Source: Macrostomum lignano
Lineage: Eukaryota
DNA: 64,000 nucleotides
Direction: 5' to 3'
Assembly: GCA_002269645.1 (NCBI GenBank)
Contig: NIVC01000166.1
Location: 62,001 to 126,000 of the forward strand
Part shown: positions 22,311 to 55,221 of the stretch, one piece after another
Position numbering within the stretch: the stretch's first letter is position 1
Layout: each line of letters starts with the position of its first letter
Position numbers and translations under genes: made by a program
The notes under the pieces: generated by a model
Seen by the model: only the letters and a program-made list of their open reading frames with translations
What the model was told of the DNA's origin: nothing
Database searches by the model: none

Positions 22311-23035
22311 CCACGCCCTCACTGGTCAAATTCAAGAACGCAAATACTACATTACTAAAACTAGCGATTTAAACGCTATTAAGCAATATTTAGCGATTTC
22401 TGAATACAAAAAGTTAATAAAAGCAAAAGTTAAAAGCTTCTTCTTCGTAAAATAGGCCATTCTTCTACAATGCCAACGGGGATCTCATGCAAACACCAAA
22501 GCTTTGTGGGTTTGAATCGGTTTGCAGGTTTGCCCGCGCCCTGCTGTTCCTTCATGCATAGCATCTATTCCCATCTTTTTTGGCTACAAATCACCCATCC
22601 ACCATGTCTAACCTCCGATCTCCCACGTCTAATCTCAAATCTCGCATATCTAATCTACGATCTACCATATCTAAACTCCAATCTCCCAAATCTAATGTCC
22701 AATCTTCCATATTTAAACTCAGATCTCTCATATCTAATCTTCGACCTTTTATATGAAATCTCCGATCTCCGCATCTCCGATCTCCCTGATCTACAATCTA
22801 ATCTCACTTATCTCACTCTTGAGATCTCGTGAATAATATTGACGGTACAAAATTGCCAGCAAACCGTTCTCATAATTCAAAACGATTTAACCCTTTATCA
22901 GTGTGAAATGACTCGTTTTTCCCTTCATTATCGCTCGTCTTCACTTCGCTCAACTCGCTTCGCTCATCCTCGCTTCATTTCGGTCAATCTCCCCATTTCA
23001 CACTTACAACGATTAATTCCCATTGAATTATGAGA

Positions 23036-23223
23036 ATACGCTCTCGTCGTTCGCTTTGGTTTGCTGGCAATTTTGTACCGTACCCAACACTTCCAACTCT
23101 ACCCAACTCTACCCAACTCTACCCAACTCTACCCAACTCTTCTAACACTTCCAACTCTCCCCAACTCTCTATAACCCCAGGCCGCGCCGCAGGCGCGAAG
23201 GGTCTTTTTCTGTTATTAAAAAT
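23036..23223 (+). repeat. Polinton left TIR (visible part), containing a 10-bp ctacccaact array
   Basis: Reverse complement of 54158-54345, apparently identical by eye. Confidence 0.95.
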
Positions 23224-23536
23224 GAACCGAGTTTACACCTTTTCTGTTAGTGATACTTTTGAGACTGTTGCTAAAAACGCAGAGATAATAAAACAACATA
23301 TTTTGAATGGAATAATTGATGAAGTTTATTTAAAATATGATGATAAGAACGAACTAAAACTTTATCCTTTAGAGCTGGATGGTTTGTATGATCTAGAACA
23401 AGAGGGAGAGTTAATATTTCAACTTGGAGATTATTTAAATTCGGATGATTGGGAGGTTCGTTCAGATGATTCTAACTCAACAAATAGCTCATATGAAACT
23501 AGTGATTCGGAGAATGAAATTGAAATTTTTATGTAA
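23222..23536 (+). CDS. Polinton hypothetical protein, 104 aa, acidic C-terminus
   Basis: ATG in the taaaaATG context at 23222; the listed upstream extension of the ORF is TIR sequence. Confidence 0.6.
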   Translation: MNRVYTFSVSDTFETVAKNAEIIKQHILNGIIDEVYLKYDDKNELKLYPLELDGLYDLEQEGELIFQLGDYLNSDDWEVRSDDSNSTNSSYETSDSENEIEIFM

Positions 23537-23545
23537 AAAATGGAA

Positions 23546-25122
23546 TTAGTTCGCAGACATTAGCTGGTTCTCATAAAAAGAACCTAATATTTCTTCACCA
23601 TCCTTATCAGCAATTATATAGGTTGTAGGATTTGTATTTAAAACTTTACTGATAGTAAATTTCTCACTTATTTTCCAATATCCTTTTCTTCCTTTTTCAA
23701 ACTTATCTTTCCATTTATAGTTATAAACAGAATCACCAACTTTAAAACCTTTAGTTTTCTTTTTTTCAAATTCTCCAAAAGTAACTTTAACATTTTCAGG
23801 ATTGATATAAGCTTGTTGAGGACTCATCTTTATAGCCGAATGATATGCGTAATTATAATCTTTCACTACGTCTGGTAATATTTTTACCCACTTTTGGTTA
23901 CCATTAAGACTAAACTGAAACCACAGTTTCTTCCCCAAAGTTCGATTAAATCTTTCTATTAATGCGTTTTTACTTTCTCCATAAATAGAATAAATTTTAT
24001 TAATATACTCCCCATTCGCGTCTTTTTTCCTTTCTTGTCCTTTTTCAAAATGATACAATTTATACATATGAGGATTGTAAAATTATTTTCCCTCATCAAC
24101 ACATAACCTTTCGCTTTTTTCTCCAAGACTTCTAAAAGCATCAGCAACCTCCTCTCCTTTTTTGGATTTCAAAGGAACAGCCCACGCGTATCTAGTAAAA
24201 CCATCTAATATGGTTAAAATATATTTATATCCTCTGTCGCTCGGCATCGACATTAAATCAGCATACCAAATTTCATTCTTTTTGAAGTTCATGATTTTTC
24301 TATAAAATTTAGGTTTTCGATATTCTTTATGAAGAATCTTTGCTTCATCAGAACTTAACCCACTACCACTTAACAACAAACAATCGACACAATTATTTCC
24401 ATGTTGGTTGTAATTAATTCCTAAACCAAATTTAACTTTAGATTGCAGAATCTTTTTCACCATCCACCTAGTTAATCTTTGGCTTACCGATAATCCTTGT
24501 AAGTTATCTAATCCTTGAATCATTTTTCTATCGGCTTCATGTTTTAATCTTAATGCTTCCTCGGGTGAGTTCTTGTCAGCATCTCTGTATGCTAAGTCAT
24601 GATAATATGCTAACCAATCAATACCGTTAATGGGAATTGAATCAGCTTTTGGAGTGTCATCAGGATTTAATCTCAAATCTAACCTAGTGCCGGGCAGTTT
24701 ACCCTCAATCTTTCGAAAGAGGCTGGAACACACCTTAAGCGGTTAAATTACCGCCCATCTCCGTCTGCTCTCTGAACCTTCTCCTTATCTGCCGACTTAG
24801 GAGCTTGGCTGCGCATTGCCACCTTGTCTTCAAGCTTGTTACCGTTGGGAAGAGGAGTTACCTCTGTTCCTTCAAAAGATTTCTCAATTGAAGTGGTACT
24901 TGAAGCTGTATGACGGGTTTCACGCAATTTGAAGATGTCGCCACAAATAGTGACTAGCAAGGACATTGACTTCCTCACTCAGGCCACGGGGTAACCTGTG
25001 AAATTATGCGATGGCAGGTGTAATTCATTTGTATACCTTCCAGTAGTAAAAATACTCGGTAAGCTTGTTAATCCTTTTTGAACATCTAAAAATCCTCCTT
25101 CAAATACTAATTGATTGCTCAT
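23546..25122 (-). pseudogene. Parvovirus-type PLA2 fused to retroviral-type (rve) integrase. Exon 1 25122-24994, group I intron, exon 2 24694-23546, with one in-frame TAA at 24085-24083
   Basis: Spliced product MSNQ..ELHLPSHNFTG|PGTRLDLRL..PINGIDWLAYYHDLAY (PLA2), then WYADL..LTILDGFTRYAWAVPLK..VDEGK*FYN..IERFNRTL (DDE). The two listed ORFs are in the same frame either side of the stop. Confidence 0.9.
24695..24993 (-). ncRNA. Group I self-splicing intron, subgroup IC1-like, 299 nt, no internal homing endonuclease
   Basis: Exon ends in U and intron ends in G. P AAAUUGCGUGAAA (24930-24918), Q AAUGCGCAGC (24817-24808), R GUUCAGAGAGCAGA (24777-24764), S AAGGUGUGUUCC (24736-24725). P1, P3, P4, P5abc, P6, P7, P8, P9, P9.0 and P10 all pair by hand. 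Confidence 0.92.
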
Positions 25123-25672
25123 TTTTAATAGTCTTAAAAATACATGATAGCACTAATTGTTTTGCAAACTCTTCAATGGTTGGTTGTTTAACTTTTTTAT
25201 AGTGATTATCTACGCTAGTTAAGTATCTTTTATTTGTCCAATGTTCAGACTTTTTTATCTGATCTTCGTCTTTGTAATTAAATGAAGAAGCGGGAATGAA
25301 ATGATCAATATGTAACATTCCAGTATAATCTTTTGACACATAATAATTTCTTGTGAAATTTATCCAATCAAAAAAGAATTCTTTTGTGCAACCAAGATAT
25401 GAGATATTGTCCTTGTCATTAAAATTTTTCAACGCCCAATTTATTCTATTTCTAATTAAAACAATATGTTTGTAATTATCATCAGTGTGACACTTATTTT
25501 TTCTATATTCATTCCATTTATCTTTATTGTTTTTTATCCAAATAGTAGATGAGGTATTATGACAAGATCGACAATCATTTCTAAATTTTTTTGAATCATT
25601 TCTCCAAAAATAAAATTCTTTCGTCATTGGTTTTTCTTGTTTACACTTAGTACAAATCTTTTTAGTTTCCAT
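25100..25672 (-). CDS. Free-standing HNH (HNN) endonuclease with N-terminal CxxC..CxxC zinc finger, 190 aa
   Basis: CTKC..CRSC plus LHIDHFIPASSF..HWTN..DN, matching the giant-virus-type HNH family pattern. Confidence 0.8.
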   Translation of the reverse strand: METKKICTKCKQEKPMTKEFYFWRNDSKKFRNDCRSCHNTSSTIWIKNNKDKWNEYRKNKCHTDDNYKHIVLIRNRINWALKNFNDKDNISYLGCTKEFFFDWINFTRNYYVSKDYTGMLHIDHFIPASSFNYKDEDQIKKSEHWTNKRYLTSVDNHYKKVKQPTIEEFAKQLVLSCIFKTIKNEQSISI

Positions 25673-25695
25673 TTTATAAAAAATAAATTTAACAA

Positions 25696-26370
25696 TTAAT
25701 TAATTCCAGTATGTCCAGCAGCTTTCGCAGCAGCTAAAACAAGTTTTCGTGGAGTTTTAAATCCTTCTCCAACAGCCGGTTTGTTATTTATAGAATCAAC
25801 AATCCTTTTATATAAACTTGTATTTTTAACAGCTCTTACTCCTAACTCATCATAAAAAATTTTAGCACTTACTAATTCATCTCTAGTGTATAAATCGGGG
25901 TTAAATTTTACCCTAGGGTTGGTAATAATATTATATGCTCCACCCAATTCTCTATATAGTTCATCCCGATTTTTATCAACTCCACCAATTCGATAATTAC
26001 CACCACCTAAATCTGTCACAGCAATACTAGTTGGTGCAGGTCTCGGATATTCATCAACCCCATCCCTTTCTGCACGTCTAATTTCTGCAACTCTCAATAA
26101 TGCTTGATCAGTCTCATAAGTAGGCGGCTCATCTAAAAGTTCATCCTCTTTTGGCTCAGTATTCTTAGCAATTTTTTCCAGAAGGTCTTTATCTGTTTTT
26201 TCTAGTTCACTAATTTTCCCCGTAATAGGATTAACAAAAGGAGCAGCAAATCTTTCGCCAGCTAATTGTATTCCTAACTTTCTTTTTTGCAAATTTCTAA
26301 CAAAATCAGAATATCTTTGCTTTTCTTTATAAATCGCTAACTCTCCATCAACATCCATAAATTGACTCAT
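25696..26370 (-). CDS. Polinton conserved (probable virion core) protein, 224 aa
   Basis: C-terminal LVLAAAKAAGHTG resembles the LLxASKxAGNTG motif of Polinton accessory proteins; aaaaaATG start. Confidence 0.55.
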   Translation of the reverse strand: MSQFMDVDGELAIYKEKQRYSDFVRNLQKRKLGIQLAGERFAAPFVNPITGKISELEKTDKDLLEKIAKNTEPKEDELLDEPPTYETDQALLRVAEIRRAERDGVDEYPRPAPTSIAVTDLGGGNYRIGGVDKNRDELYRELGGAYNIITNPRVKFNPDLYTRDELVSAKIFYDELGVRAVKNTSLYKRIVDSINNKPAVGEGFKTPRKLVLAAAKAAGHTGIN

Positions 26371-26405: not shown

Positions 26406-27878
26406 ATGGCTGAAACAAAAACTATGTGGAGTGATAAATTTCATTTCAAAAAGCACCGTCAGTATATTAATGAGGTCAGGGCAAAAGATTTAAATTTTAC
26501 TCTACCAACAAGTGATAATTCAAATAACTTTACTACCGGAACGGTAACTTTTGACATCGGCGCAACCAACACTATATTGGATATGAAAAATGCGTTTTTC
26601 CGCGTTAGATGGTTGTATACTAGAAATGATGGAACTGCTCTTGCAGCCGGCGATATCGCAGATCGTTCTGGAATAATAATAGAAAATGATTGGTTTTATA
26701 AATGTTTTTCCCAAGCCCAACTGTCAGTTAATGGAGCCGAGGTTGAGACAGCATCAAACCCCGCAGAGATTAATGGAGTTTTGAAACATTTAAATTATAC
26801 TTATTTATCAAAACAAGTTGGTGATAATGTTGGGTGGATGCCTGATAAGGGTAATGGTCAAGCAGTAGTTTTCCCTAATGTACAAAACGCAGCTGGTGCA
26901 GATACCGCAGCTCTTATAGCTTATCTTAATACCAATATAGTTCCAGTTGTAACCACCATGACTAACACAAAAGATATTAATACAGGTTTTATAGATCGTC
27001 AGAATAAATTCCCAGTCGCGGTTTTAACCACGGCAACCGCATATGAGCAGGACTTTTCAATCTTCCCACTATTTGGGTTCTTCTCACCAAATCGAGTATG
27101 GAAAGGATTAAAATTTGGGATACAGTTGCAAATATCTGGTGGATATCAGCCTAGGATACTTTATGGAACCTCAATTTCAACCGATATAGCAGTTCGTATA
27201 GATTCAATTCAATTAGTCGTACCAACTATTGAGGTAACAGCCCCACTTTTAAAACACATCGATAATCAGTTAACGCATGATCAGGAAATATTTTATTTGA
27301 ATCGTCGACACTTTATGCGAACCATTAATAATAACCAGGATTCATTCCAGTGGCAGATAATTACATCAAAACGTCGGGTGAGATATATTTTTGTTTGGTT
27401 TAAAATAACAAACAGAAGGAGTAAAATAACAAATGGAGATTTATATTGGCTTCAATCGGGTGACATAGCAGCACAAGCAGTTACCGCAACAGACAATGCG
27501 GTTTCGGCTATTAACGAGTTTAATGTTCAGAATATCCGCCTGCAGGTTGATGATCAATATTATCCGGTTAAAGACCCCCTAAATTTAAATATAGCAAATA
27601 ATAATGTTAATGATTTTATAAAATATTATCAAGATTATGTCAAAAATGAAGCGTTTGCCGTCCCTCAGTACACACCCACAGAGTTTCTAAACATTCATCC
27701 AGTGGTTGTTTATGATCTAACGGCACAGAAAGAAAACGTAGCCAATGTTGGACTTAATTACATGTTAGAGATTAATAAAACCGGTAATCAGGCAATAGAC
27801 GCACACGTATTGTTTCTAGAGGAATATATGTCAATTGCTAAAGCTGATGGCACGATTGTTCGGGACGCCCCGCTGTAA
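26406..27878 (+). CDS. Major capsid protein (double jelly-roll), 490 aa
   Basis: Size, beta-rich composition, FSQAQLSVNGAEVE and IRLQVDDQYYP segments, position next to the ATPase and penton. Confidence 0.8.
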   Translation: MAETKTMWSDKFHFKKHRQYINEVRAKDLNFTLPTSDNSNNFTTGTVTFDIGATNTILDMKNAFFRVRWLYTRNDGTALAAGDIADRSGIIIENDWFYKCFSQAQLSVNGAEVETASNPAEINGVLKHLNYTYLSKQVGDNVGWMPDKGNGQAVVFPNVQNAAGADTAALIAYLNTNIVPVVTTMTNTKDINTGFIDRQNKFPVAVLTTATAYEQDFSIFPLFGFFSPNRVWKGLKFGIQLQISGGYQPRILYGTSISTDIAVRIDSIQLVVPTIEVTAPLLKHIDNQLTHDQEIFYLNRRHFMRTINNNQDSFQWQIITSKRRVRYIFVWFKITNRRSKITNGDLYWLQSGDIAAQAVTATDNAVSAINEFNVQNIRLQVDDQYYPVKDPLNLNIANNNVNDFIKYYQDYVKNEAFAVPQYTPTEFLNIHPVVVYDLTAQKENVANVGLNYMLEINKTGNQAIDAHVLFLEEYMSIAKADGTIVRDAPL

Positions 27879-27903: not shown

Positions 27904-28665
27904 ATGGTAAAAGCAAAACACAATATTATATTTCCAAACGATCCTTTTCTTTGTTTAGTAATTGGTGGGTCGGGCAAAGGAAAAACACACTTTGTTTACG
28001 ATTTATTAACAACAGATGGAATGTTAGACTATAATAATTTATTAATATATACTAACAAACCTAGAATAAAATATTATGAATTTCTTAAACATGGATTAAA
28101 AAACAAATTAAAAAAAGATATCATGTTTAGAATGTTAAGAGCATATGAGCAATATGAGGACGATGATGAACCAAGATTTACACTCGATGACATTAAGGAT
28201 TTATGTAAAACAACGGCAGAAAATCCAGAAAACACTAACAACCGAGCCCCAACTGTTAGAGTATCAACCCGATTATCCTATGATCAAATTCCAAAACATG
28301 ATAAAACACTAATTATTTTTGATGATTGTATTAACGACGGCGATCAAGAATTGCAAAAGGAAATTTTTGTTAGTGGTAGAGGAGACGGAATTGGAGCTTT
28401 TTATCTAACTCAATCCTTTAGAGAATTAGAATCAATTATAAAAAAGAATGCTAGTTGTTGTGTAATGTTTGATTTGGATAACTATGATTTACAAAATATA
28501 CACGCTAGATTTAATCCTGGATTGGATGTAAAACCATTCAAAAGTATGTGTAAAAAAATTTGGGATGATAGTCAATACAAACATATATACATGTATATCA
28601 ACCCTAGGTTAGAAAGGAAAAATCGAATCTTAAAAGATCTGATAAAAGAAGACGATGAGGAATAA
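27904..28665 (+). CDS. A32/FtsK-like genome packaging ATPase, 253 aa
   Basis: Walker A GGSGKGKT, Walker B IIFDD, GR..LTQS motif C. Confidence 0.92.
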   Translation: MVKAKHNIIFPNDPFLCLVIGGSGKGKTHFVYDLLTTDGMLDYNNLLIYTNKPRIKYYEFLKHGLKNKLKKDIMFRMLRAYEQYEDDDEPRFTLDDIKDLCKTTAENPENTNNRAPTVRVSTRLSYDQIPKHDKTLIIFDDCINDGDQELQKEIFVSGRGDGIGAFYLTQSFRELESIIKKNASCCVMFDLDNYDLQNIHARFNPGLDVKPFKSMCKKIWDDSQYKHIYMYINPRLERKNRILKDLIKEDDEE

Positions 28666-34628: not shown

Positions 34629-36668
34629 TACCCTTACTGCCAGTTTATGTTGTACCAATATTGACAGTGTTGCATAGATATTGCCGTGACATTTTATGTT
34701 TCAGCTACATTGTAACAATGTTGCCGTGACAACATTTTATTTTGTAGTGGTATTTTACTATTGAGGCTGCTTATAGTAGAACATAAGGGCACATGACCTT
34801 GCTCAAAAATTAGAAAATAATAAAACCATTTAGCTGGTAAAAGGCTGTTTCTTTGAAAGTAGCCAAGGCACAGAAAATTTATATTTAAGTACAAATTTTT
34901 TTGTCGTTTTTTAGGCCTTAATAAGTATTTTCTTTTGTTAATGTTAGAAGAAGTGTATTGCTCAATACAATTTATCGTTTATAAAACTTAAAAGATGTAA
35001 ACAATACATGGATAAAATTTGCATGGATAAAATTCTTGAGCTTGCTTGTAGCCCTTGTTAGATAGTTCTTGTTAGAACAGGCTAATATTTGGTTATTGTA
35101 GAGTCTAACACTACTTATGACATTTTTCAATATTCAAGTCACTAGTTACCTCATTGTTTTTTAAACAGTTCTATAGTCCCAGTCTTTCTTAATCTTAACT
35201 TAGCTAGACAACCAGACAAAGGCATAGCTAGGCGTCATTTATTTTCAGACCTTGCTGCCCTAGTAGATAGTTTTGGATGTGTTCTAAGCTTTATTTAAGT
35301 ATTTTAGGCATTTAATTTATAAAAAATTATAGTATGTAATGTAGGTAGGCCATTTTTATTTTAATTTAAGTTGGTATTAAAAATTGGATAGGCTAGGCCT
35401 ACAATTAGAACTTAGTAGCCTAGATGGTAGGCCTAACCTAGCTTGAACTATAAAACTTTGTATGCTAGCATGTGCTAAATCTAAGTTTATATATAATTAA
35501 AAAAATTAGGCCTACACTTGAAGCCTAGGTTTAAATGAATAATTCCAACTGGACTCAACTTATTGTAGTATTGAGCCATTATTTTTGGTTTTTTCATCTA
35601 TATTTTACTATAGGCAAAGGTATAGGGAGGGAGGATAGGGGGATGTATCCTTCCCTAAAGAGCCTAACTAATTTTTTTTGTTGCCTTTTGTTGCTATATA
35701 TGCTACCATGTAACTCTATCATAATACTTTTACCTTGGTATACCTTCCATAAAAAATTCTCCTTGGTATATCCCCTGTAGGAAATTCCTAGCTACACCTA
35801 CTGACTATAGACATAGCCATGGGGCTTATAAGTTATCAAGAATAATTAAAATATTTAAATAGTATATAGTTTTTCAAATATAATTTTATTATATCCCTAT
35901 TTACGAGTATTTAGGTATTTTAATTATGTTGATTTCAAAATATTTTCTTGAATGCCCTTTGATTTTTTTCTATATTGGCTATTTTAGCTTAAACCTAATA
36001 TTTATATAATTGCTTAATTTATTATATACTAATTAGGCCTATTTACTGTTTTGGAAAAAAATTATTTTCATAACTAGGGGGGGGCCTATTGGGTGGTCAT
36101 GTTAGCTGGCTGCATGTGTACTCAATCAGTTAGTTCATGTACTTTAATTTAATAGTTGTGGGTTGCTATGGCCCTGAGTATCAGTTCTATTAGCAAAGAA
36201 CAATCTGGGCCAATCTGGACTGTGCTGCCCTAGGGCTAAGGGATAAGGTCAATGGAAAAAAGCTAATATATATTGTCCATCAAAAGTTCTGAAACCCTTG
36301 CTACAATGCCTTCTAGCAGATATAATTTCAGTCTGTTTCAATTGTAACTTGATTCAAATGAAAGCTGCAGATCTCAGCTCCATAATATGGTCAAGAAAAA
36401 GTTTATTCAAAGAAGCGCGTGTGAACAGGCCAGTGTTATGTATATAAAGGTTAGAGAAAAAAGTGAGGAAAAGACTAAGAAATGCATCTACTAAGAATGC
36501 ATCTTATTTACAAATGTATCATACCATTAAGTAAAGTTTAGATATAACTACTTATGTATAAGCAATGTATATATCCTTTGTGATATAGTCATTGTCATAT
36601 GGGCTATATTCTTCAGTTTTCACATTAATATTCAATAAATCAAAAACTTTTCAGATCTTTACAAAATC

Positions 36669-38858
36669 ATGGAGAAGCAAATGAGCAAACGTACTATTCA
36701 GAGGCAAGCATTATCTGAGTACTATATGGTCCAAGACCAGAGAAGTTCTGCATCTGCTTCTGAATATCCTAATATAGGACTATCAGTTGACCAAGTACTA
36801 GAAGCTCAAGATTCCTGTGTATCTCTGTCTAGCAACCAACAAGAAGTTGAAATGGAAGCAGATATAGGATCTAAAGAGTTTGAAGTGGTACAGGCTCTAA
36901 ACCATTTTGGTAAGTTAATTTGTGGTTAACTGTTTAGCCATTTTTTGCTCTACTATAGATGAAATATATTTTGACTCCCTAAAAATTGTCACACTTTTCA
37001 GGTTCAAGTAATGCAAGCTTTCAAAGTAGTGCTAATCTATCTGATCGAGGCTCTGAATTTTCGGCTATGGAGTCTGAGCTTAACTTGATTGACCGTAGGG
37101 AGCAACTACAAACTGCTCTCTGTGATTGGGTCAAAGCAAAAGATCCAGACACTGCAATGGTTAATGATTTACTTCATCGCTTGGAAGCCATTGAGCCTGG
37201 CCTGCCACGTGACTATCGTACTCTGATGAAAACTGAACGCAAAGTATCTGTAAAAACTGTTGAACCTGGCCACTATTACCATTTTGGTGTCAAAGCTGCT
37301 TTAAATTTTGTACTGGCTAATCGTCCATCTTTGTTGCTGATGAGTACCGTTTTTTTTTCATCTTTTTATTGATGGTGCGCAGGTCTATCGGAGCACAACA
37401 TGTACCCTTTGGCCAATTTTTGGACGCCTAAGGGACCTTCGTGACTGTTCTTTTATCATCGGCATCTATTGTGGCGATTCGAAGCCTGCCTTTGTTAATG
37501 ACTTTCTGGCTGATTGCATAGCTGAGCTGCACAGTTTAATCTCAGCTGGATTCATAATGCCAAATGGAAAATGTGTTCCCTTTATTTTGGAGATGGTAAT
37601 GTGCGACACACCTGCTCGATCCTATGTTAAAAGTACCAAACATTGCACAGGCTACTTTTGATGTGACAAATGCGTAGTCGAAGGCGAGTATGTTGCACGT
37701 AGGGTCTGTTTTGTCGATGTTTCTGCACCTCTTCGCACTGATGATATGTTCCGCACGCCTGAAGCCTATATAGGCCACATTCGCAATCGCCAACAAAGTC
37801 CGTTTTTGTCCTTAGCAATAGACGTGATCAAGTGCTTTCCATTAGATCCCATGCACCTGATTTATGAGGGCGCTGTTTTCAGAATTTTAAAGTCCTTATC
37901 TGCCGCACATGTTGACTACCGCGTCCCTTCGCTTTCTATACGGCAAATCAGCACAACATTAACGTCTCTGAGATCATGTATAACGCACGATTTTCCTCGT
38001 CGGCCGCGATCCCTTAATGTTTTAAAACTCTGGAAGGCAACAGAATTGCGCATGTTTATCTTATATCTTGCACCTGTTGCTCTGAAGGGAATTGTTAGTT
38101 CTGTTATGTACCAGTTAATTCTCTCATTGCACACATTCACATTTCTTATGTCGCATCCCGTTTTATGTTCGCATTATTGCGATTTCTCAGAGGACCTCAT
38201 CAAGTGGTTTGTTTCTGAGTGCACAAAAGCATGGGGCCCAGAGTTCATTGTATTTTCGATTCACGCCCTAATCCATGTGCCGAATGACGTGCGACTGTTC
38301 GGTTGTCTCGAAAATTTTAGCTGCTTTTGGGGTGAAAACTTTATACGCTTTTTTACTAAGTTTTGTAGAGGCCCATCATTCACCCTGCAACAAGTTGTCA
38401 AGCGAGTTCTAGAAAGAGATGTTACCCTAGGCTATTTTGATAAGTTTTCTGGAACTCAGAATGTGTCTTTTTCTGGAATTAGACCCATTCCTAACATTAC
38501 TGTCCATCATTTATCTATCTCCGGAGCCTTTTCAAAAGTAATTCTGCCTGATCGACACACATTCATTTCCAATTTACATCCGGATTGCTATGTTTTTACT
38601 AAGCAAGGTGCTGTTGTTTGCGTGAAGCATATTTTATCATGCGTTGATAATAGTTTCATTCTAGTTGGTCTACAGTATCGCCGTATGGAACCATTTTATG
38701 ACAGCGCTGTCAATTCGTTAGATATAAATATAGTAGTTGTTAGCGATCTCTCTCGTGATTTGAGCTTCATCCCATCTGCCGATTTATTGTGCAAAGGGAT
38801 GCTTTTGAAGCAGCGCGAAGGCGGCTTAGTAGCACTTCCTATTTTGCACACCTTTTGA
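36669..38858 (+). pseudogene. EnSpm-type DDE transposase; intron 36910-37001, +1 slip in poly-T at ~37350-37358, TGA at 37659
   Basis: FIDG, CDTPARS..K..GYF*CDKC, DPMHL, WKATELRMF, HALIHV..FSCFWGEN motifs. Confidence 0.88.
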
Positions 38859-38897
38859 AATTTGCCTGTTCAAGCGTTCCGATTTAAATTAAGTTTC

Positions 38898-41457
38898 ATG
38901 ATGTCATCTTCTGACTCTGATCAAGAAGAGCCATCGATGCCTGCTCTGACCTATGCTCTCGTTTTATTCGCTGCCGACCGTTCTTTCGATTTGGTACTCA
39001 AAACATGGTTCAAGTCCCCGACGACTGTGCTGTGGCCCCCAAGACGAGCGTATGAGAAGGCAATCGATGGACGGATCGCTCCAGACGAAAATTGGACTCT
39101 ACACGAGGTGATCGTATTGGCACAGCATGGTACGTAAGCTGGTTTTTCTCAGTTCAGGGTTTGTTTCCCGTTTAGCATATACTTTTAAAGAGTTTCAAGA
39201 GTAAATATGTTTGTCATTTTACTGTAAAGCATGGTTAATAGTGACTTGTGAAGTTTCAAAGCCCATATATGTATGCCTATGTATGTATAAAATATAGGTT
39301 TTTTGCACTTGGTTTGTATTTTTGTTTATTACTTGTTTATTTATAACTGACATTATTACAAATTACATCGTACAATAAACAACTAAAAAATGTATCGCAT
39401 AATACTGATATGAATTAAAGTGCTCAATTATGACCTGCCAGGGAAAAATATTTGCATTACATTGCGCTTCTCGTTATATAACCTCTCAGATTCATGGCGC
39501 TCGGCTTTAAAATTAAGAAGTCGTTATGAAAACAAAGGTGACGTCGTATCTACGGACTGCGAAGTGTCGAGGCATCGTCCACCTGCTGATGTCTTCATCG
39601 ATAGACACAGTAATTGTCTGGACGAGGAGATCGAATATTCAAGGAATCGCAAATCAAGATCGAGATTACCAGCTGGTGAACCGACTGTGGTACCCAAGGC
39701 ACCAAGGCTGCAGACTGTACTGCAACAATCACATGCTTCGAACATCCGCCCTGGGCCCAACAGCAACAATTCAGCTACATCAGTTATTACCGCACCATGT
39801 GGGATTTTATCAGCTCGTGCTGCGGCAATGCCATCATCAGCTGGCGCTGCGGCAGTGTCATCATCTGCTGGCGCTGCGGCAATGCCATCATCAGCTGGCG
39901 CTGCGGCAGTGTCATCATCAGCTGGCGCTGCGGCAATGCCATCATCAGCTGGCGATGCGGCAATGCCATCATCAGCTGGCGCTGCGGCAATGCCATCACC
40001 AGCGAATCGTAACCGGTCTGCTCTGCCGTCTGCAGTGTCGTCGCCGGGCTTACGAAATTCACCATCGGTCGAACTGTCGCCTTTCGCAGCTGCAAATACA
40101 CAGTCACTTCTGGTGACTCTCGGCGATTTGTACGGAGAACAACCTGATGTTGCTAGTCCAGGACAATCGTCAACTGTAACTTTGGCAGAAGTTGCTTCTA
40201 TGATTTCCAAAATAGAAGGTAACAGTTATGATATTTTTTTACCCTACCAGTAAATGCTGCTTACAGATAGACTCACTATTTACTCCTTAGATCCAAATTC
40301 ATGAATCCACACTAAATATTAAAATGAATCTGTTCATTGACTGACATGACTATAGCTTATACTCATTTTATATTTTCACAACAACTACGCTTTGATTTTT
40401 TATGAGAAAAATGGTTTGTCTCGTATAGAAGTATATTTCTCAGATACATATATAGCAAAAACATATAATATGCGTATAATAAGCAAACAACGATTTTATT
40501 TTTCTAATATTTCAGCGTCGCAGCGGGCGACGTATCTTAAAGTGTGCAGCATCGATCGGCGACTTCAATCGATTGAGCAGCATATCTCCTCAAACCCATT
40601 GCCCGCTGCTCATTCTGCTGCTGATAGTCGACAACACCAAATTCCTACTGACAAAGCCATTTTGGGTGGCTTGCCGTTCAACTCCCCGGAGGGGCTTCTA
40701 GCATGGAGCCGTCAAGTCAAGGAGGATCGAAAGTCAACAGAGACTGTGGTAAATATTCGTTAAATAAAATGATACAGCTAGAATGCAATGTGCACTGTAA
40801 TTAAAGCCACTGATTTCTTTTTTTGCTAGAGATTTCTGATTCTTTAAAATATCGTACAATGATAGCAAAACGATTTGCAAGCTTTGATAGATTCTTATAA
40901 GAAGCTATCTAACAAGACTTCTTTCGACTTCAATTTTGTGATCAACCAACATCAACATTTCAGTTCGCCTTTCTCCGTCGGTTGGGTGGAAAGTCTGTTT
41001 CAACGCAAGTAAGCACCCTTATGTACCAACTGATGACCGACGGATTGGCTAAGCAGTACAGCCTTCGTGGTGCCGTTCGTAGGGGTGTGTCCAAACTGCC
41101 GTTTGAAAACCTTGGACTTCTCCCCCTTATCAAAAGTAAGAAAAGCAGAATGTAATGCCCATTAGTTTCTAATTCAGACGTTGAAATAGTCCATTTGTGT
41201 TCGATTTAATTTATAATTCAGGAATTCTCTCGTTCTCAGATGTCGTATGGACGGCCCATAAGACGGCGACAGGACTCGCGATCGAGGAAGCCGTGGGCGA
41301 GCATCTGCGCTTTGCCGCCGTTCGAGAACGTCGCAAAGCTGAACGCGCCTCTAGTGGGCAAAATGCTGCCGATTCTGGTGTTGGTCCTAGATTGGACGGC
41401 GAAGGCGATGCTGAAGGTTTCGGTGCTGACGACGCTGACGAAGAAGACAATTATTAA
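38898..41457 (+). CDS. EnSpm second gene (spliced; DUF4806-like C-terminus; 27-bp AAAMPSSAG repeat)
   Basis: GT-AG exons; LVLKTWF..VLWPP N-terminus and FLRRLGGKSV..LAKQYSLRG..KLPFENL C-terminus; internal exon limits approximate. Confidence 0.65.
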
Positions 41458-42136
41458 TGGCGTGTAAAATCAATCGCAATGTACCAAGTTATTTTGTCAA
41501 CATCCAGCTGTCCGAATTTCTTTGATTGTTTGATAGCAAAGGACATTTTTGTATTGAAGCCTCTAGTTGTGGGTGAATATAAAAAAATGATGCTGCAAAG
41601 TGATTTTCCTTCTTAAAGCCGCTTTGTATGACTTTGTATGCCATATTATTTCCCCCTTATCTAAGTTATATTTGCATACCATTGACTTACAAATTTACAA
41701 CAAACCCTATTGACATCTCTTTGCGCAGTAAAAACCATTTGCAATTTATTCTGTTTTGAAGTAAAATTCCATCTAGAAAAATATAAAACCAACAACTTTT
41801 TGTTGTACTTCGAGTGCGCCATTTTGTTTCATTCTTCCTATTGAATTGGATTAAAGCTGCAGGGTGGTCTTGCGTCTCGTTTTGTTTTTTTCAGAATATT
41901 AAAACAATCTACTACAAATTAAATAATCTCGCTGCATTACTATCAGTAGGAAGAAAAGAGATTTCAAAATGTTGTTATGTCAACATTGCTTTAATGTTAT
42001 GGCAACATTATATAGCAACATATGACAACATTTGCAACGACAAAAAATATGTTGCCGCAACATTGACATCAACAATTCAGCAACATTAGATATCAACGTT
42101 GTGACAACATTGTGGCAATATACCTGGCAGCTAGGG

Positions 42137-46700: not shown

Positions 46701-49334
46701 GGCTTTAAAATTAAGAAGTCGTTATGAAAACAAAGGTGACGTCGTATCTACGGACTGCGAAGTGTCGAGGCATCGTCCACCTGCTGATGTCTTCATCGAT
46801 AGACACAGTAATTGTCTGGACGAGGAGATCGAATATTCAAGGAATCGCAAATCAAGATCGAGATTACCAGCTGGTGAACCGACTGTGGTACCCAAGGCAC
46901 CAAGGCTGCAGACTGTACTGCAACAATCACATGCTTCGAACATCCGCCCTGGGCCCAACAGCAACAATTCAGCTACATCAGTTATTACCGCACCATGTGG
47001 GATTTTATCAGCTCGTGCTGCGGCAATGCCATCATCAGCTGGCGCTGCGGCAGTGTCATCATCTGCTGGCGCTGCGGCAATGCCATCATCAGCTGGCGCT
47101 GCGGCAGTGTCATCATCAGCTGGCGCTGCGGCAATGCCATCATCAGCTGGCGATGCGGCAATGCCATCATCAGCTGGCGCTGCGGCAATGCCATCACCAG
47201 CGAATCGTAACCGGTCTGCTCTGCCGTCTGCAGTGTCGTCGCCGGGCTTACGAAATTCACCATCGGTCGAACTGTCGCCTTTCGCAGCTGCAAATACACA
47301 GTCACTTCTGGTGACTCTCGGCGATTTGTACGGAGAACAACCTGATGTTGCTAGTCCAGGACAATCGTCAACTGTAACTTTGGCAGAAGTTGCTTCTATG
47401 ATTTCCAAAATAGAAGGTAACAGTTATGATATTTTTTTACCCTACCAGTAAATGCTGCTTACAGATAGACTCACTATTTACTCCTTAGATCCAAATTCAT
47501 GAATCCACACTAAATATTAAAATGAATCTGTTCATTGACTGACATGACTATAGCTTATACTCATTTTATATTTTCACAACAACTACGCTTTGATTTTTTA
47601 TGAGAAAAATGGTTTGTCTCGTATAGAAGTATATTTCTCAGATACATATATAGCAAAAACATATAATATGCGTATAATAAGCAAACAACGATTTTATTTT
47701 TCTAATATTTCAGCGTCGCAGCGGGCGACGTATCTTAAAGTGTGCAGCATCGATCGGCGACTTCAATCGATTGAGCAGCATATCTCCTCAAACCCATTGC
47801 CCGCTGCTCATTCTGCTGCTGATAGTCGACAACACCAAATTCCTACTGACAAAGCCATTTTGGGTGGCTTGCCGTTCAACTCCCCGGAGGGGCTTCTAGC
47901 ATGGAGCCGTCAAGTCAAGGAGGATCGAAAGTCAACAGAGACTGTGGTAAATATTCGTTAAATAAAATGATACAGCTAGAATGCAATGTGCACTGTAATT
48001 AAAGCCACTGATTTCTTTTTTTGCTAGAGATTTCTGATTCTTTAAAATATCGTACAATGATAGCAAAACGATTTGCAAGCTTTGATAGATTCTTATAAGA
48101 AGCTATCTAACAAGACTTCTTTCGACTTCAATTTTGTGATCAACCAACATCAACATTTCAGTTCGCCTTTCTCCGTCGGTTGGGTGGAAAGTCTGTTTCA
48201 ACGCAAGTAAGCACCCTTATGTACCAACTGATGACCGACGGATTGGCTAAGCAGTACAGCCTTCGTGGTGCCGTTCGTAGGGGTGTGTCCAAACTGCCGT
48301 TTGAAAACCTTGGACTTCTCCCCCTTATCAAAAGTAAGAAAAGCAGAATGTAATGCCCATTAGTTTCTAATTCAGACGTTGAAATAGTCCATTTGTGTTC
48401 GATTTAATTTATAATTCAGGAATTCTCTCGTTCTCAGATGTCGTATGGACGGCCCATAAGACGGCGACAGGACTCGCGATCGAGGAAGCCGTGGGCGAGC
48501 ATCTGCGCTTTGCCGCCGTTCGAGAACGTCGCAAAGCTGAACGCGCCTCTAGTGGGCAAAATGCTGCCGATTCTGGTGTTGGTCCTAGATTGGACGGCGA
48601 AGGCGATGCTGAAGGTTTCGGTGCTGACGACGCTGACGAAGAAGACAATTATTAATGGCGTGTAAAATCAATCGCAATGTACCAAGTTATTTTGTCAACA
48701 TCCAGCTGTCCGAATTTCTTTGATTGTTTGATAGCAAAGGACATTTTTGTATTGAAGCCTCTAGTTGTGGGTGAATATAAAAAAATGATGCTGCAAAGTG
48801 ATTTTCCTTCTTAAAGCCGCTTTGTATGACTTTGTATGCCATATTATTTCCCCCTTATCTAAGTTATATTTGCATACCATTGACTTACAAATTTACAACA
48901 AACCCTATTGACATCTCTTTGCGCAGTAAAAACCATTTGCAATTTATTCTGTTTTGAAGTAAAATTCCATCTAGAAAAATATAAAACCAACAACTTTTTG
49001 TTGTACTTCGAGTGCGCCATTTTGTTTCATTCTTCCTATTGAATTGGATTAAAGCTGCAGGGTGGTCTTGCGTCTCGTTTTGTTTTTTTCAGAATATTAA
49101 AACAATCTACTACAAATTAAATAATCTCGCTGCATTACTATCAGTAGGAAGAAAAGAGATTTCAAAATGTTGTTATGTCAACATTGCTTTAATGTTATGG
49201 CAACATTATATAGCAACATATGACAACATTTGCAACGACAAAAAATATGTTGCCGCAACATTGACATCAACAATTCAGCAACATTAGATATCAACGTTGT
49301 GACAACATTGTGGCAATATACCTGGCAGCTAGGG
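43753..49334 (+). mobile_element. Second, 5'-truncated EnSpm copy created by the duplication
   Basis: Same ORFs and same lesions as copy 1; lacks the left ~1.9 kb and left TIR. Confidence 0.9.
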
Positions 49335-52300
49335 TATTATTTACTTTTATTGACTGTCCATCATATAAAGTTTTAAACGATGCAAAATTAATCTTATCAT
49401 TTGCACATCCTTTAACTGTTTTTTTCTCTTCCATAATAAAATCATCTTTCAATAAAAGACAATATTTAATTTTAGGAGCGATAAAATATCCGAATATAAT
49501 TCCACCCTCTCCATAATCGTTTTTTCCTTGACTTAAATTATTTCCGACATGTCCGTTTTTATTTAATGTATCCCAATGTTTTTTATGTATATATAACGAA
49601 TCCGTATCACCGTAATAAATTTCTGGAGTTTTTGAACCGTCTATAGAGGTGATAAAATTATTCATGATCCTTCTTGAATGAGCTAAGATAAATATTCCTA
49701 ATTGTGCCGGACAAAGGTCTGATATAGGACTATCTTCGTCTTCGATATATTCTTTTGTGTCTTTATTTTTTTCAACATAATATAAATCGTCACATATTTT
49801 CTCATATGACTTGATTGTGTCATCGTATTCTGTTTTTAATGTATTCAAATTCCAGAGATGTGTTGAGAATGTAATGTCTCTTTGAACTGTTTTACCATAT
49901 AATGAATTTAATAGTGTTTTTACCAATTCAGAACCTGCCTCGTTATTTTCTTTTTTAAATACTTTTCTCATTTCAAAAAGGTTTGTAATATAATTTTGAA
50001 ACGGAGAGAAATCGTAATTTTTCTCATATACAATTCCACTATATATCTTTAATATTTTTCCACCCATTCTTACAATTTCTTGTATGTCTACGGAACATAA
50101 GGTGTCGATTACCTTTCCGTTTCTAAACCTATTTAATGTTTTTGTTTCATTTGCTTTTGTTTCCGGATTGTAAAATTTCTCTTTATCTTTCGATGGGAGA
50201 TGTTGGAGAAAAACGCTAGTTGGGTTCTCATACATAATCTTTAAAACCGCTGTTTTTGGTCGAAAGGTTTGTGAATTAAATTGTGTCAAGAAATCTTTTT
50301 CCTCGCTTATATCAAAAACTCTTGCTGTTTCTGCTCTTGGATATTCGCTATCCTTATCAGACATGGCGGATGGGTACAATGAGACTCCATCAAAATTCAT
50401 TAAACAATCTGATGCGGTACCCAATTGGTTTTTTAATTTAATTGCGATTTTCTTTTTTTCTTCCATATCGCTTTTGAGATAAGTTGATATAACCTCGCAT
50501 GGGTCGCTTGTTGGTATTTTTAAATGGTCTTTTACAACGTCTACAATTGTTCGAAAACAGTCACTTTCATATTTATTTATTAGTGCAAATACTCTGCCTC
50601 CTTTGACTGCGTCCCTCATAAACCTTCTTATATAAGGATTGGTATGAGAGTGAACCGAAAATTCTTTTTTTAATAGTGTTTGGTATTTCATTTTTTCAAG
50701 TTTGCTTAAGTCAAAATAATCTTCGATTTTCAACGGAGATATTATTTCTTCAATTTTTTTTATATAAATACTTTTTTCTTTTGTCTTTAGGTATTGTTTC
50801 ATTTTGTCTTCGACTCTAACAAAATCTTTAAACCAACATTTTAATGTTAAGCTCGAACATGTAAGAGTATCAAACATTGTCATTCCACCAATTTCATATG
50901 CTATTTCATTATATTTATGAATACAGGCGCATAAAGAAATAAGATCAAATTGTAAATATTCGTACCATTCGTCCATGCGCTCTATATAGTCGTGTTCGGT
51001 AATGTCGTGAACCATTGAGGTCTTGCACAGATCCTCTCTAATTGTCATTGATGAGCAAAACTTTTTTAAACTCATTGAAGCGTGTTGATATGAACAAAGC
51101 ATCGTAATGGTTTGTTTCGAATCCTTATGATTCTTCTTCTTATCTCTGTTTATAAACGCTCCAACCTCTTTTGTCATATAATCATTTACAAAAGTGATTG
51201 ATAATATTCCTCTTGGGGTTTTAAGAATTTTAATTGGTTTTATATTACAAAATAGTGGTATGTACGAATCGAATCGGGATGCGTTGTGTGCGATCAAAAC
51301 AATCTTTTTTGACCTAACAGTACCAAGGTATTTAAACATTTTTCTAACGCAATCAACCTTTGGTTGCGAGCCTTCGGCACGGTCAAGCTTATCTCCGTCT
51401 GTTTGAAAATCACATCCGCGGTCGGATATCAAGATCTTAGTTAATTTCTTTATTTCCTCTGGGGTTTCGTTACACTTATTAGAAAAGTCGTTATAGTTTA
51501 AAAGACCAACTGCATACGGACATGCTTGTTGATTATAATTTAAATATGTTTCAAAATCAAATATGTATACATTTGATTTATTGGGATTTGTGGGTGTGAT
51601 GAACATTTTTAACTCTTTAACATTTTCGGGCGTTGGGTTTTTAAATACTATTTTATAATTGTCTTTTATCCGTTCGAGGGCGATTCCTCGTTGTTTATTG
51701 GAAATAAGGCAATAATGACCAATGTGATAATCAGGCGTGTGATAGTAATTTATTAATAACCAGTCGTGGTGAATCCCTCTTTGAGACTTTGGTTCAATTC
51801 CACGATTATTAGGGTTATACAGCCCTATATTAAGATTAAAATATTCATTGAATCTTTCAATTCTTGAATTTGTCATTAAACCTCTTTGGGTTCTTGAGTC
51901 GTACAACCAAGCACCATATTCGTCTTTGGATGGGGCATTATCGCCATAAATAAACTGAACACACTTGTAGAAACAATTTCCATCACTAGGTATGTAACAG
52001 TACTCATCTTTATACTCTACAATTTCACACATGACATTTGTTCCCATACCCTGCTTTGACCTTTCATGTTTAAGTATAATTTCATTTGGTGTCATTTTAA
52101 GTCTTCCAGAAAACAAACTTAAATTCATGTCGTAGTTTTCTACCAAATGCTTAAACCAAGCTTGAAACTGACTTATATTATAAAATGTTGCTAAGTATTG
52201 AATTATCTCTTCACGATCATCACCGGTTTTATTATAAAAATATTGTACTCTTGCATTAGTAATTTCAACACTATATCCGTTTGAAAGCTGGGTAATAATA

Positions 52301-52686
52301 AAATCTAGGACGTTCTGCATTGGTTCAAATCGATAAACCCTAATAAACTCTTCTAATGGTTTTTCATCCGATTTATTCCGTAGTTTCCGACGTGTTTGTT
52401 TCTTTTGGTTTTTTTCTAATTCTGCTATTCTTTTTTCATATTCAACCTTTTCTATTAAACGCTTATAAGCTTCTTCTGTCCTTATCCTATTTGCTAATTC
52501 GTTTATTTGCTGTTCTTGTATTTCTCTTTCTCTCTGTCTTTGTCTCTGTCTTTCTCTTGCTCTTCGCAGAAGATGCTGTCTTTGGCGCTGATCAATTTGT
52601 TCAATCTGTCTTTGTAATCGATTGAACTGTTCGCGCTCATTTGCAAGAAGTTGTCGAATCTGATCTGGGCTCAATCTTTGTTCCAT
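49335..52686 (-). pseudogene. polB: Protein-primed family B DNA polymerase (pPolB), C-terminus cut off by EnSpm
   Basis: Exo FDFET, HNASRFD; Pol DGVSLYPSAM, KTLLNSLYGK, YGDTDS; N-terminal coiled coil and DGNC..GHY OTU-like motif. Confidence 0.95.
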
Positions 52687-53738: not shown

Positions 53739-54149
53739 TTAAAATTTCTTTAATCCTTTTCCGCCTTTAACTGTGGTTAACATTTTATTAAAATCCTGAA
53801 TATCTTTATTACTTATTGGTGCGCTTTTCGTGGGGGTTTCTGTTGGTTGTGTGGCTTGGGTTGCTTCCTGCGCTAGTTTCAAATCTTTTATTACTTTTAT
53901 TTGTGAGAGGGTGTCGTTAAATTCTCTCAATTTCTTTAGTTCTTCTACTGCCCTCGCTGCTTCAATTCCACCCTTTACAGCATTTGTTATAGAACCTGCT
54001 GCGGAGCCTGCTTGCCCTATAAGACCCATATTATCTTTAACAAAATTTGCTGCTGTTCCAACCACATCAAAAAGCCCCTCACCTCGGTATTCAACTGGGT
54101 CTCCTACCTGCAATTCATTCAGATTTTGCATATGTGTAACGTGTGTCAT
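53739..54149 (-). CDS. Polinton small virion protein with predicted amphipathic helix, 136 aa
   Basis: RGEG-LFDVVGTAANFVKDN; ends KGGKGLKKF. Confidence 0.5.
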   Translation of the reverse strand: MTHVTHMQNLNELQVGDPVEYRGEGLFDVVGTAANFVKDNMGLIGQAGSAAGSITNAVKGGIEAARAVEELKKLREFNDTLSQIKVIKDLKLAQEATQATQPTETPTKSAPISNKDIQDFNKMLTTVKGGKGLKKF

Positions 54150-54157
54150 TTTTGTCT

Positions 54158-54345
54158 ATTTTTAATAACAGAAAAAGACCCTTCGCGCCTGCGGCGCGGC
54201 CTGGGGTTATAGAGAGTTGGGGAGAGTTGGAAGTGTTAGAAGAGTTGGGTAGAGTTGGGTAGAGTTGGGTAGAGTTGGGTAGAGTTGGAAGTGTTGGGTA
54301 CGGTACAAAATTGCCAGCAAACCAAAGCGAACGACGAGAGCGTAT
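54158..54345 (-). repeat. Polinton right TIR, cut by the LTR element
   Basis: Reverse complement of 23036-23223; stops at the TG of the LTR. Confidence 0.95.
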
Positions 54346-55215
54346 TGTGACGTTGTCAGTTTAAGGTGGTCCCGAAAAGGGCCGCTGGACTATATTTTCC
54401 CTTGTAATTTCTCATATTAATTTCTCCAATAGTTTATTTTAACGTTTACTTATAGTAGCGTGCAAATAATTTTTATCAACTGCTAATTCACTGTGTATTG
54501 GATAGACCTTGCGCCCGTCTGTAAATTTTGGCACGATGGATAATTTTAAGTTCTCTCGCCAGCCAATGAAAACCACTCGTGCTTCGCGCTACCCCCCTCT
54601 GCGCTCCTTTATTAAACCCCCCGCCTGGCGGCGGGCACTCCACCTTCCTCTCTCCTCTCTTTCTTATCTGTTCTTCCGTCCCCTTTTGCGTTCTTGTCTG
54701 GCTGCCTCGAGCCTCCTTATTTCTCGCCACGGCCCCTCTGTCTGGGCCGGCCTACTCACACACTTACTTGACTGCCTGCCACTGTCTGCCACGGCTAACG
54801 CCAATCTCACCACTACGCATCTGCCACTATTGTACTCATCGCCGTCTGTTGTACTCATCGCCGTCTGTTGTACTCATCGCCGTCTGTTGTACTCATCGCC
54901 GTCTGTTGTACTCATCGCCGTTACTCACCACGTTGCATCGTCTTGCATCACTCGCCTACCACTCGACTACAATCTCTAACTCACCTTCAATTCAAAACCA
55001 TTGTTGCAGCCGCCAGTGCCCAAAGCGCAATAAGTTCTATATTGATATTAACCGCATCGAATATTGATCTCAACAATAATAACCAACTACGGCCAGTTTC
55101 CGGCCTTGTATGCCAAGTGCTCCGCTACACAAATCCGCTATCAAGACTTGACTCGATTCATTTGGGACTAAAACGGCCCTTTTAAGGGTCACGGACAACA
55201 TCAAATAACGTGACA
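54346..55215 (+). repeat. 5' LTR, 870 bp (tgtgacgt...acgtgaca)
   Basis: TG..CA ends with imperfect 8-bp terminal inverted repeat; followed by the PBS. Confidence 0.9.
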
Positions 55216-55221
55216 TAATTT

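Follow-up and report, generated by a model that had tools for sequence, protein, structure and literature searches.

According to the accessible part of PMC3679873, nuclear group I introns reside exclusively in the rRNA genes of eukaryotic microorganisms, and the nucleases encoded by such introns of nuclear ribosomal DNA (rDNA) are His-Cys enzymes with sites of 15–20 bp. Group I introns matching the Rfam model RF00028 have been reported from Polinton-like viruses of a cryptophyte, a rhizarian and a chlorophyte (PMC12220804), and in phages both collaborative homing and an intron capturing a free-standing nuclease have been described (PMC3984707). In the Bodo saltans virus, protein genes contain nuclease-bearing group I introns as well as introns devoid of an open reading frame (ORF), and these have been proposed to act as weapons against competing viruses (PMC5871332); these three papers, too, are cited for the parts of their text available. 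Here we describe a Polinton, integrated in the genome of the animal Macrostomum lignano, whose PLA2-integrase gene is interrupted by a group I intron. The stretch analysed (hereafter the window, to which all coordinates refer) comprises 64,000 nucleotides, corresponding to positions 62,001 to 126,000 of the forward strand of contig NIVC01000166.1 (assembly GCA_002269645.1). The intron represents an IC1-like family in animal chromosomes that is paired with a gene for an Eco47II-like nuclease located inside or beside the intron, a combination of ribozyme and restriction-type enzyme that is not expected in this setting.

An intron family and its RNA structure

An initial sequence-only reading of the window had delimited a 299-nucleotide insert ending in G, with a G+C content above that of its surroundings, behind an exon of 43 codons. 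All of these details proved exact, the insert having 47.5% G+C compared with about 33% in the element. The features of the gene and of its intron are as follows:

24695..24993, minus strand: group I intron, 299 nucleotides, ORF-less; identified with RF00028, ends fixed by intron-less alleles
24994..25122, minus strand: exon 1 of the PLA2-integrase gene, starting with the ATG at 25122 and comprising 43 codons, the last of which is GGT at 24994-24996
24083..24694, minus strand: exon 2, comprising the remainder of the PLA2 domain and the beginning of the integrase core (rve at E 6.3e-7, a score under the cut-off)
23546..24067, minus strand: separate ORF that matches the integrase encoded by the intron-less allele in its C-terminal part
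24828..24905, minus strand: P5abc extension with an A-rich bulge and a GAAA tetraloop
24766..24772, minus strand: 5' strand of P7, in which 24770 is the G of the G-C pair that binds guanosine
24725..24736, minus strand: J8/7 and 3' strand of P7, with a G at 24731 in place of A306 of Tetrahymena

The RF00028 covariance model covers positions 24704-25003 of the minus strand with 63.3 bits against a gathering score of 50 (E 1.5e-15), and the identity of the insert as a group I intron can be regarded as practically certain. When the whole window was scanned with Rfam, the intron was not listed, so routine scans can miss such introns and more cases may hide in animal assemblies. In the window copy the first base of the intron is U and the last one is G. 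Natural intron-less alleles from the same genome (L047, L054 and L071) have the exons joined at exactly this point, as the sequence-only reading had anticipated, which fixes both splice sites with no assumption needed; removal of the intron yields the uninterrupted allele, as seen in these three loci and in L067 and L068. One of the intron-less alleles encodes a PLA2-integrase fusion of 424 amino acids, in which the PF08398 match (residues 31-115, E 3e-8) crosses the junction after residue 43, the first residues of exon 2 being Pro-Gly. The earlier proposal that both PLA2 and the integrase depend on splicing agrees with the PLA2 domain spanning the junction, but is weakened for the integrase by an internal Met in exon 2 (24523), by the stop at 24083 that ends the exon-2 frame in the window copy, and by the location of the C-terminal part in a separate ORF. 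The rve score on the truncated exon 2 is 30.0 compared with a Pfam cut-off of 32.6.

The window copy is a member of a large set. In the genome searched (764 Mb, 5269 contigs), a 531-nucleotide query returned 199 candidates, the 40 scored being 90–100% identical over nearly the full length, and a pattern for the 3' junction of the window's family (family 1) occurred at 102 places compared with five for a control. About 100 related copies share the intron, and the intron family as a whole numbers well over 100. A second Polinton family (family 2), with an exon-2 protein about 60% identical, has its intron at an identical position; the 28 RF00028 genome matches that were scored all exceed the cut-off and belong to family 2, the spacing between the exons is 792–895 nucleotides in 27/28 where both exons were placed, and two of the introns have lost their 3' end. 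Among the matches listed, three of 40 in family 1 and 25 of 40 in family 2 are contiguous, that is, intron-less. The introns of the two families are 81–82% alike, compared with 55–62% for the adjoining 40 exon bases, and the terminal G of the window copy is found in family 2 as well. Across family-1 loci, the last 40 bases of exon 1 are by far the more variable, 65–100% identical to those in the window, and fall into a few discrete types, which could be co-conversion tracts; the first 40 bases of exon 2 are 80–100% identical. The terminal base of the intron tracks the first codon of exon 2 in these loci, A going with CCC in 20 of 23 cases and G with CCG in four of six.

A different intron type, referred to here as type B, is exemplified by L052:1780-2113 (minus strand), L069, L070 and L072 and has about 24 near-full matches in the genome. 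It shares the 5' site and P2/P5abc with the main type and differs in the core, the RF00028 score being 42-43 bits and hence under the cut-off, and its first 10 bases pair with later exon sequence (9 bp, -14.6 kcal/mol). Type B is either a dead lineage, or one using a second 3' site, or one undergoing a second tiny excision. Its assignment to group IE was considered and rejected, as the 5' motif of P7 also occurs in viral introns with an IC1-like P6 motif. Decayed type-B-like introns were found in L278 and L279 next to a remnant of PLA2 exon 2, with exon 1 not recognisable; Rfam at E 0.01 matches none of them.

The full group I core drawn by hand in the sequence-only reading is kept, with covariation, in an alignment of 48 distinct copies (28 from family 1 and 20 from family 2, duplicates collapsed), from which L023 and L028, with 3' deletions, and L052, of the different type, were left out. 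Helices P1, P2, P2.1, P3-P9, P5abc and P9.0 are retained throughout, and for the 91 pairs of the helices as drawn on the window copy, standard pairs occupy 4209 of the 4359 ungapped cells (96.6%), compared with 36–50% in slid controls. Two-sided changes affect 15 of the 91 pairs, including four P2 pairs shifting jointly in six rows and three P7 pairs that differ between the families; many of the changes lie between families, so the events are fewer than the cells. P1 has its U.G pair at the 5' splice site in 48/48 rows, the G264-C311 pair of the P3-P7 core is G-C in 46/48, the pairs of P5a, P5b and P5c are kept, several with two-sided changes, and the receptor-like motif of P6 consists of CCUAAG with UAAGG, UAUGG or CAAGG. 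P8 aligns poorly in family 2, covariation of L2-L5c (P14) is not evident among the copies, and the folding energy alone is unremarkable (z -1.72; five of 100 shuffles fold as well). The P7 originally proposed stands in its covarying pairs, but the G.U at its third-from-last pair is atypical, occurring solely in the window copy, with G-C in 27 of the 28 family-1 rows.

IC1 introns are distinguished by P5abc with an A-rich bulge, a GAAA loop and a receptor-like P6, and further by a P9.1/P9.2 extension and P13. The IC1 label given in the sequence-only reading is supported by P5abc, P2.1 and the Tetrahymena-like build, but P9.1/P9.2 are missing, the gap from P9 to P9.0 being five bases, and we therefore call the intron IC1-like rather than IC1. 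The deviating J8/7, formerly taken as a reason to doubt activity, appears in a different light when the guanosine site is considered, which in Tetrahymena includes the triple A306-C266-G309 (PMC10020454, accessible part). At the position of this fourth triple, family 1 has G together with a G-C pair. Of the 127 motif hits obtained in viral contigs, 87 yielded a core that could be placed by a pattern demanding a perfect P7, and 81 of these have C-G with A, four (three distinct) G-C with G, and two U-A with A, none being discordant. Judging from these sequences, the oddity is probably better read as a compensated (swapped) base triple of the guanosine site than as decay, and the viral covariation offers natural support for the fourth triple itself. 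The viral loci L093, L094, L135 and L174 are independent group I introns in which P7 has the G-C pair and J8/7 ends in G, and the P7 of L094 is identical to that of family 1.

An Eco47II-like nuclease and the loss of GGNCC

Between P2 and P3, the family-2 introns contain an ORF for an Eco47II-like nuclease of the PD-(D/E)xK type. The protein is about 150-175 amino acids long, residues D65, E76 and K78 are invariant in all 10 nuclease sequences compared, and the predicted structure (with a local confidence score, pLDDT, of 84) has EcoO109I as its best restriction-enzyme fold match in Foldseek (rank 2, E 3.5e-4) and in the top row of the VIA comparison (Z 7.8, root-mean-square deviation 4.5, 151 aligned). 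A PDB sequence search with the nuclease profile gave nothing significant. EcoO109I has the site RGGNCCY. For an Eco47II homologue, a link to GGNCC is given 'without certainty' in the available part of PMC10305163. Nine metagenome homologues are 51–58% identical, two of them with PF09553 on record, and in four (P0003, P0004, P0006 and P0009) the peptide continues into a read-through of P3/P4/P5abc, which implies that the nuclease-in-intron form exists in other public assemblies, too.

In nine family-1 loci a free-standing gene for a nuclease about 65% identical lies just upstream of exon 1, and the PD-(D/E)xK motif is kept in the eight such ORFs printed. This upstream slot was read in the window and in L002, L003, L041, L046, L050, L058 and L060-L062, and in these loci it is occupied by one of two ORFs, HNH-like or Eco47II-like, and in no case by the two together; the Eco47II-like gene has no match anywhere in the window. 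One genome hence shows both the free-standing and the intron-borne state of one nuclease, and, as in homing systems, a nuclease gene in or beside the intron co-exists with intron-less alleles.

A Gly-Pro codon pair always spells GGNCC, and it is such a pair in the PLA2 motif that the intron splits, with the GGT at 24994-24996 forming the left half of the site and the CC of exon 2 its right half. The window Polinton proper has not a single GGNCC in 16,628 nucleotides, compared with 8.9 expected from a gapped model and 16.8 from an order-2 simulation (minimum 8 in 100). This is the lowest count of 256 gapped words, all four GGNCC words being lost, and codon-order shuffles gave a mean of 14.9 and zero in 0/500. 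At the protein level, Gly-Pro is absent from the 4516 amino acids of 15 ORFs, with 8.6 expected. GGCC is normal in the element (9 vs 10.5 expected), and so is GGNCC in DNA inserted into it (25 vs 18.9) and in the flanking DNA (81 vs 73.8); three GGNCC at 36082-36207 were rejected as Polinton sites, their positions being within inserted DNA. Family-1 loci have four GGNCC in 107 kb, two of which are intron-less junctions, and family-2 loci have 14 in 91 kb compared with 100 expected, the copies in both families not being independent. An intron-less family-2 copy retains a single GGNCC in 10,301 nucleotides, at the insertion point. The evidence tying the intron family to a short-site nuclease is strong, if circumstantial.

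The host element and its chromosomal setting

Other features of the element that lie in the window are these:

22826..22831, plus strand: 6-bp target-site duplication, left copy
22832..23238, plus strand: left terminal inverted repeat of the Polinton
25100..25672, minus strand: HNH-like ORF occupying the gene slot upstream of exon 1 (a lead only, from named clusters at 0.87-0.88 and with no match in Pfam)
26406..27878, plus strand: ORF of 490 amino acids, probable major capsid protein, no Pfam match
27904..28665, plus strand: A32-like packaging ATPase (PF04665, E 1.3e-6, over cut-off)
49325..52686, minus strand: protein-primed DNA polymerase B (PF03175, E 5.4e-18, over cut-off), broken near its end by inserted DNA
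54143..54346, minus strand: right terminal inverted repeat, inner part, broken by a long terminal repeat (LTR) retrotransposon

The Polinton starts at 22832, right after the 6-bp duplication, the second copy of which lies past the right inverted repeat just outside the window (L277). Inverted repeats with the target-site duplication, DNA polymerase B, integrase and packaging ATPase are all present, placing the element among Polintons/Mavericks. The 490-amino-acid ORF is taken by us to be the major capsid protein from its position, and ORFs of fitting size and place may account for the Polinton capsid proteins and the cysteine protease, Pfam matching none of them. Wnt-family matches number 86 in the genome compared with 0 in 14 control genomes. 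The initial placement of the intron inside a Polinton integrated in an animal genome is thereby confirmed by RF00028, the Pfam genes, the target duplication and the Wnt matches.

The polymerase gene is split by inserted DNA (~34641-49324) that includes a 7198-bp tandem duplication comprising part of the polymerase, and an ORF of 370 amino acids without a Pfam match, presumably transposase-like. An LTR retrotransposon with LTRs of ~870 bp and gag/pol ORFs sits within the right inverted repeat, extending from 54346 to beyond 64000 (L277). A weak match to the histone 3' stem-loop (25.8 bits, cut-off 34) at 55170-55216 of the plus strand coincides exactly with the 3' end of the first LTR.

Proposed spread of the intron, rival explanations and known systems

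The explanation we lean towards, as a whole chain with some reservation, is that a nuclease drives the spread of a ribozyme intron among competing Polintons and that the intron protects its carriers. The predicted nuclease would cut GGNCC; intron-less rivals would be cut at their single GGNCC and would then disappear or undergo repair from a copy with the intron, which would amount to homing, of a collaborative kind in family 1. Intron-bearing copies would be immune, their site in DNA being hidden by the intron; in RNA, the intron would excise itself by the usual two guanosine-dependent steps, restoring the PLA2-integrase frame. The precursor is presumably a transcript of the host polymerase II, because Pfam reveals no RNA polymerase among the annotated ORFs of these elements. 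The window copy, lacking the Eco47II-like gene, may be a passive, protected passenger. Splicing by at least the G-ended copies is probable. Among 27 intron-bearing copies of family 1, exon 1 has a ratio of nonsynonymous to synonymous polymorphism (pN/pS) of 0.32, and the first 70 codons of exon 2 have one of 0.07. A bolder version, which we hold tentatively and rather doubt in its entirety, combines an active ribozyme with a restriction-enzyme gene drive among Polintons, in which a 5-bp cutter acts as a single-site homing enzyme through the purge of GGNCC (with Gly-Pro avoided), the commonest lineage splices with a terminal A, and type B may remove a 2-nucleotide piece or use a second 3' site via extended guide pairing. 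If it is true, both stages of nuclease capture survive in one genome and the intron hides the sole GGNCC, which PLA2 needs.

A number of observations weigh against the favoured explanation, and those concerning splicing lend themselves to its main rival, namely that the intron was once active and most present copies merely block the site with splicing dead. We consider this unlikely, but not to be dismissed lightly. Under it, PLA2 would be dispensable for copying within the genome and the integrase would be made from an internal start, such as the Met at 24523, with A-ended and type-B copies still multiplying. The terminal base is A, not G, in 80 of the 100 family-1 3' junctions listed, three of which may be chance matches; about 24 copies are type B with its different core, and in all four of these inspected two extra bases, shared by many identical copies, lie two codons past the homologous 3' end. 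Putative RNA contigs from two runs contain an unspliced boundary of intron and exon 2 in the A-ended form. P10, which the sequence-only reading had drawn by re-using the G of the P1 U.G pair, is weak by eye once that wobble G is not re-used. The spliced joint looked for in RNA was not seen, either: there is no exon-exon joint in the contigs (contigs only) of four of the 24 listed runs, compared with 24000-25800 at 88% likeness, these being X1, X6 and X9, guessed to be RNA, and X16 of unknown kind, with none of the 24 recorded as RNA; X16 has no joint despite the intron-less DNA alleles in the genome, which makes the test a weak one. On the other side, A-ended copies retain every core pair as well as P9.0, and in 21 of them pN/pS is as low as in the whole set (0.31 for exon 1, 0.07 for exon 2). 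A natural group I intron ending in A reportedly still splices. A compensating change in the guanosine-binding pair of the A-ended copies was sought and rejected, the pair being unchanged, which tells against their activity. Part of the purifying signal may itself be older than the intron, given that diverged exons harbour near-identical introns, a situation that points to intron movement or recombination.

Even less probable, in our view, is that the intron is real and splicing and its link to the nuclease coincidental, GGNCC having been lost owing to composition, a lost methylase or the nuclease of an earlier host, with the nuclease as mere cargo. Several further points against our explanation belong here. 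The PF09553 score is 25.0 bits, under the cut-off of 25.9 (E 1.6e-5), and the VIA Z of 7.8 is in the middling range by the tool's own scale. Relatives of the nuclease (20 viral and 2 metagenome loci at 28–37% identity, found with the nuclease alignment) also occur free-standing in giant-virus contigs without introns: a motif scan finds no intron core at the 20 viral loci, and the 16 of them scanned with Rfam at the gathering score yield only a tRNA and no group I intron. Other words are low in the window element, too (CCNGG 9 vs 21.7, GGNNCC 10 vs 21.9, Pro-Gly 3 vs 8.6), and near the distant viral homologues the depletion of CCNGG exceeds that of GGNCC; codon resampling with the proteins fixed gives a mean of 5.4 GGNCC and zero in 4/500. 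The host genome keeps its GGNCC, which requires some restraint on a 5-bp cutter. No contig is shared between the 26 that have intron-less alleles and the 78 that have nuclease matches, an exclusion that is partly automatic, the family-2 nuclease being inside the intron. Against coincidence stand the total loss of precisely the four GGNCC words in the presence of normal GGCC, the recurrence of the loss in both families, the position of the sole remaining site of an intron-less copy at the insertion point, and the occurrence of the nuclease gene both beside and inside the intron. Removal by the spliceosome, or an unrelated insertion whose ribozyme likeness is a relic or chance, is very improbable. 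A GT does occur 2 nucleotides upstream of the 5' splice site, but the matching 3' end is AC rather than AG and two nearby AG acceptors run, by eye, into stops, in keeping with the initial observation of no usable GT-AG pair; the covariance score and the covariation exclude chance, so this alternative is largely refuted. A contaminating virus or protist as the source, in place of an animal chromosome, deserves hardly any credence: giant-virus contigs do commonly contain introns of closely related structure, but the 6-bp duplication and inverted repeats, the nested transposon-like insertion and LTR retrotransposon, the location of the element within a 700-kb contig, and the contigs C506 and C67, which carry Wnt matches alongside intron-bearing copies, all argue for the chromosome.

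The origin of the intron was sought among viral contigs. The PLA2 part had 12 pattern hits and P0004 had eight, with no relatives among either; the P5abc pattern had 59 loci, none with blastn similarity to our introns. The core motif returned 122 stretches, mostly giant-virus-type introns, of which 80 were compared; none is in a PLA2 gene, the best are about 70–88% alike over short pieces, and no donor was identified among them. As for the novelty suggested by the sequence-only reading, no report of a group I intron in an animal Polinton or of an Eco47II-like intron nuclease was found in the literature searched, in its accessible parts (subscription journals, Repbase notes and supplements lying outside), but group I introns as such have been known from protist Polinton-like viruses (PMC12220804). 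Further papers on Polintons or related elements, in their accessible parts, touch on introns just briefly. Those introns, of ~300-380 nucleotides, likewise reside in integrated elements; in Rhodomonas the gene that contains them is short and lies upstream of the capsid gene, whereas here the PLA2-integrase fusion of an element in an animal host is interrupted. The available text on the protist introns names no host protein, nuclease or intron-less allele, and all three are present here.

The closest structural counterpart is the Tetrahymena Tth.L1925 type (PMC3679873 and PMC10020454, in their accessible parts), which shares the P1 U.G, P2, P2.1, P3-P9, P5abc, the GAAA loop with a receptor-like motif and the four-triple guanosine site. 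Unlike the IC1 introns of nuclear rDNA, the present one is in a protein gene of an animal nucleus, lacks P9.1/P9.2 and has the fourth triple swapped, and the enzyme that accompanies it is PD-(D/E)xK-like rather than of the His-Cys type. It would allow the function of group I ribozymes in animal polymerase II transcripts, and the tolerance of a natural intron for a terminal A, to be tested. With Eco47II (PF09553) and EcoO109I (PDB 1wtd, 1wte) the Polinton nuclease shares the PD-(D/E)xK motif and the fold; it differs in being intron-borne or free-standing in a Polinton, in its size of ~150-175 amino acids and in scoring under the Pfam cut-off, and a cognate methylase was not seen with it, no search aimed at one having been made. 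It is a candidate for a restriction-type enzyme that brings about homing through a short site, in a eukaryotic mobile element that avoids this restriction site. The Bodo saltans virus, as described in the available part of PMC5871332, infects a protist as a cytoplasmic giant virus, its nucleases being of the HNH and GIY-YIG kinds, in contrast to the integrated animal element considered here. The phage system (PMC3984707, accessible part) likewise features an ORF-less intron that lies at the target of a neighbouring free-standing nuclease, together with a composite intron containing the gene; in Macrostomum lignano both states are found in one eukaryotic genome, and the site, apparently of 5 bp, would be unique through its loss elsewhere in the element.

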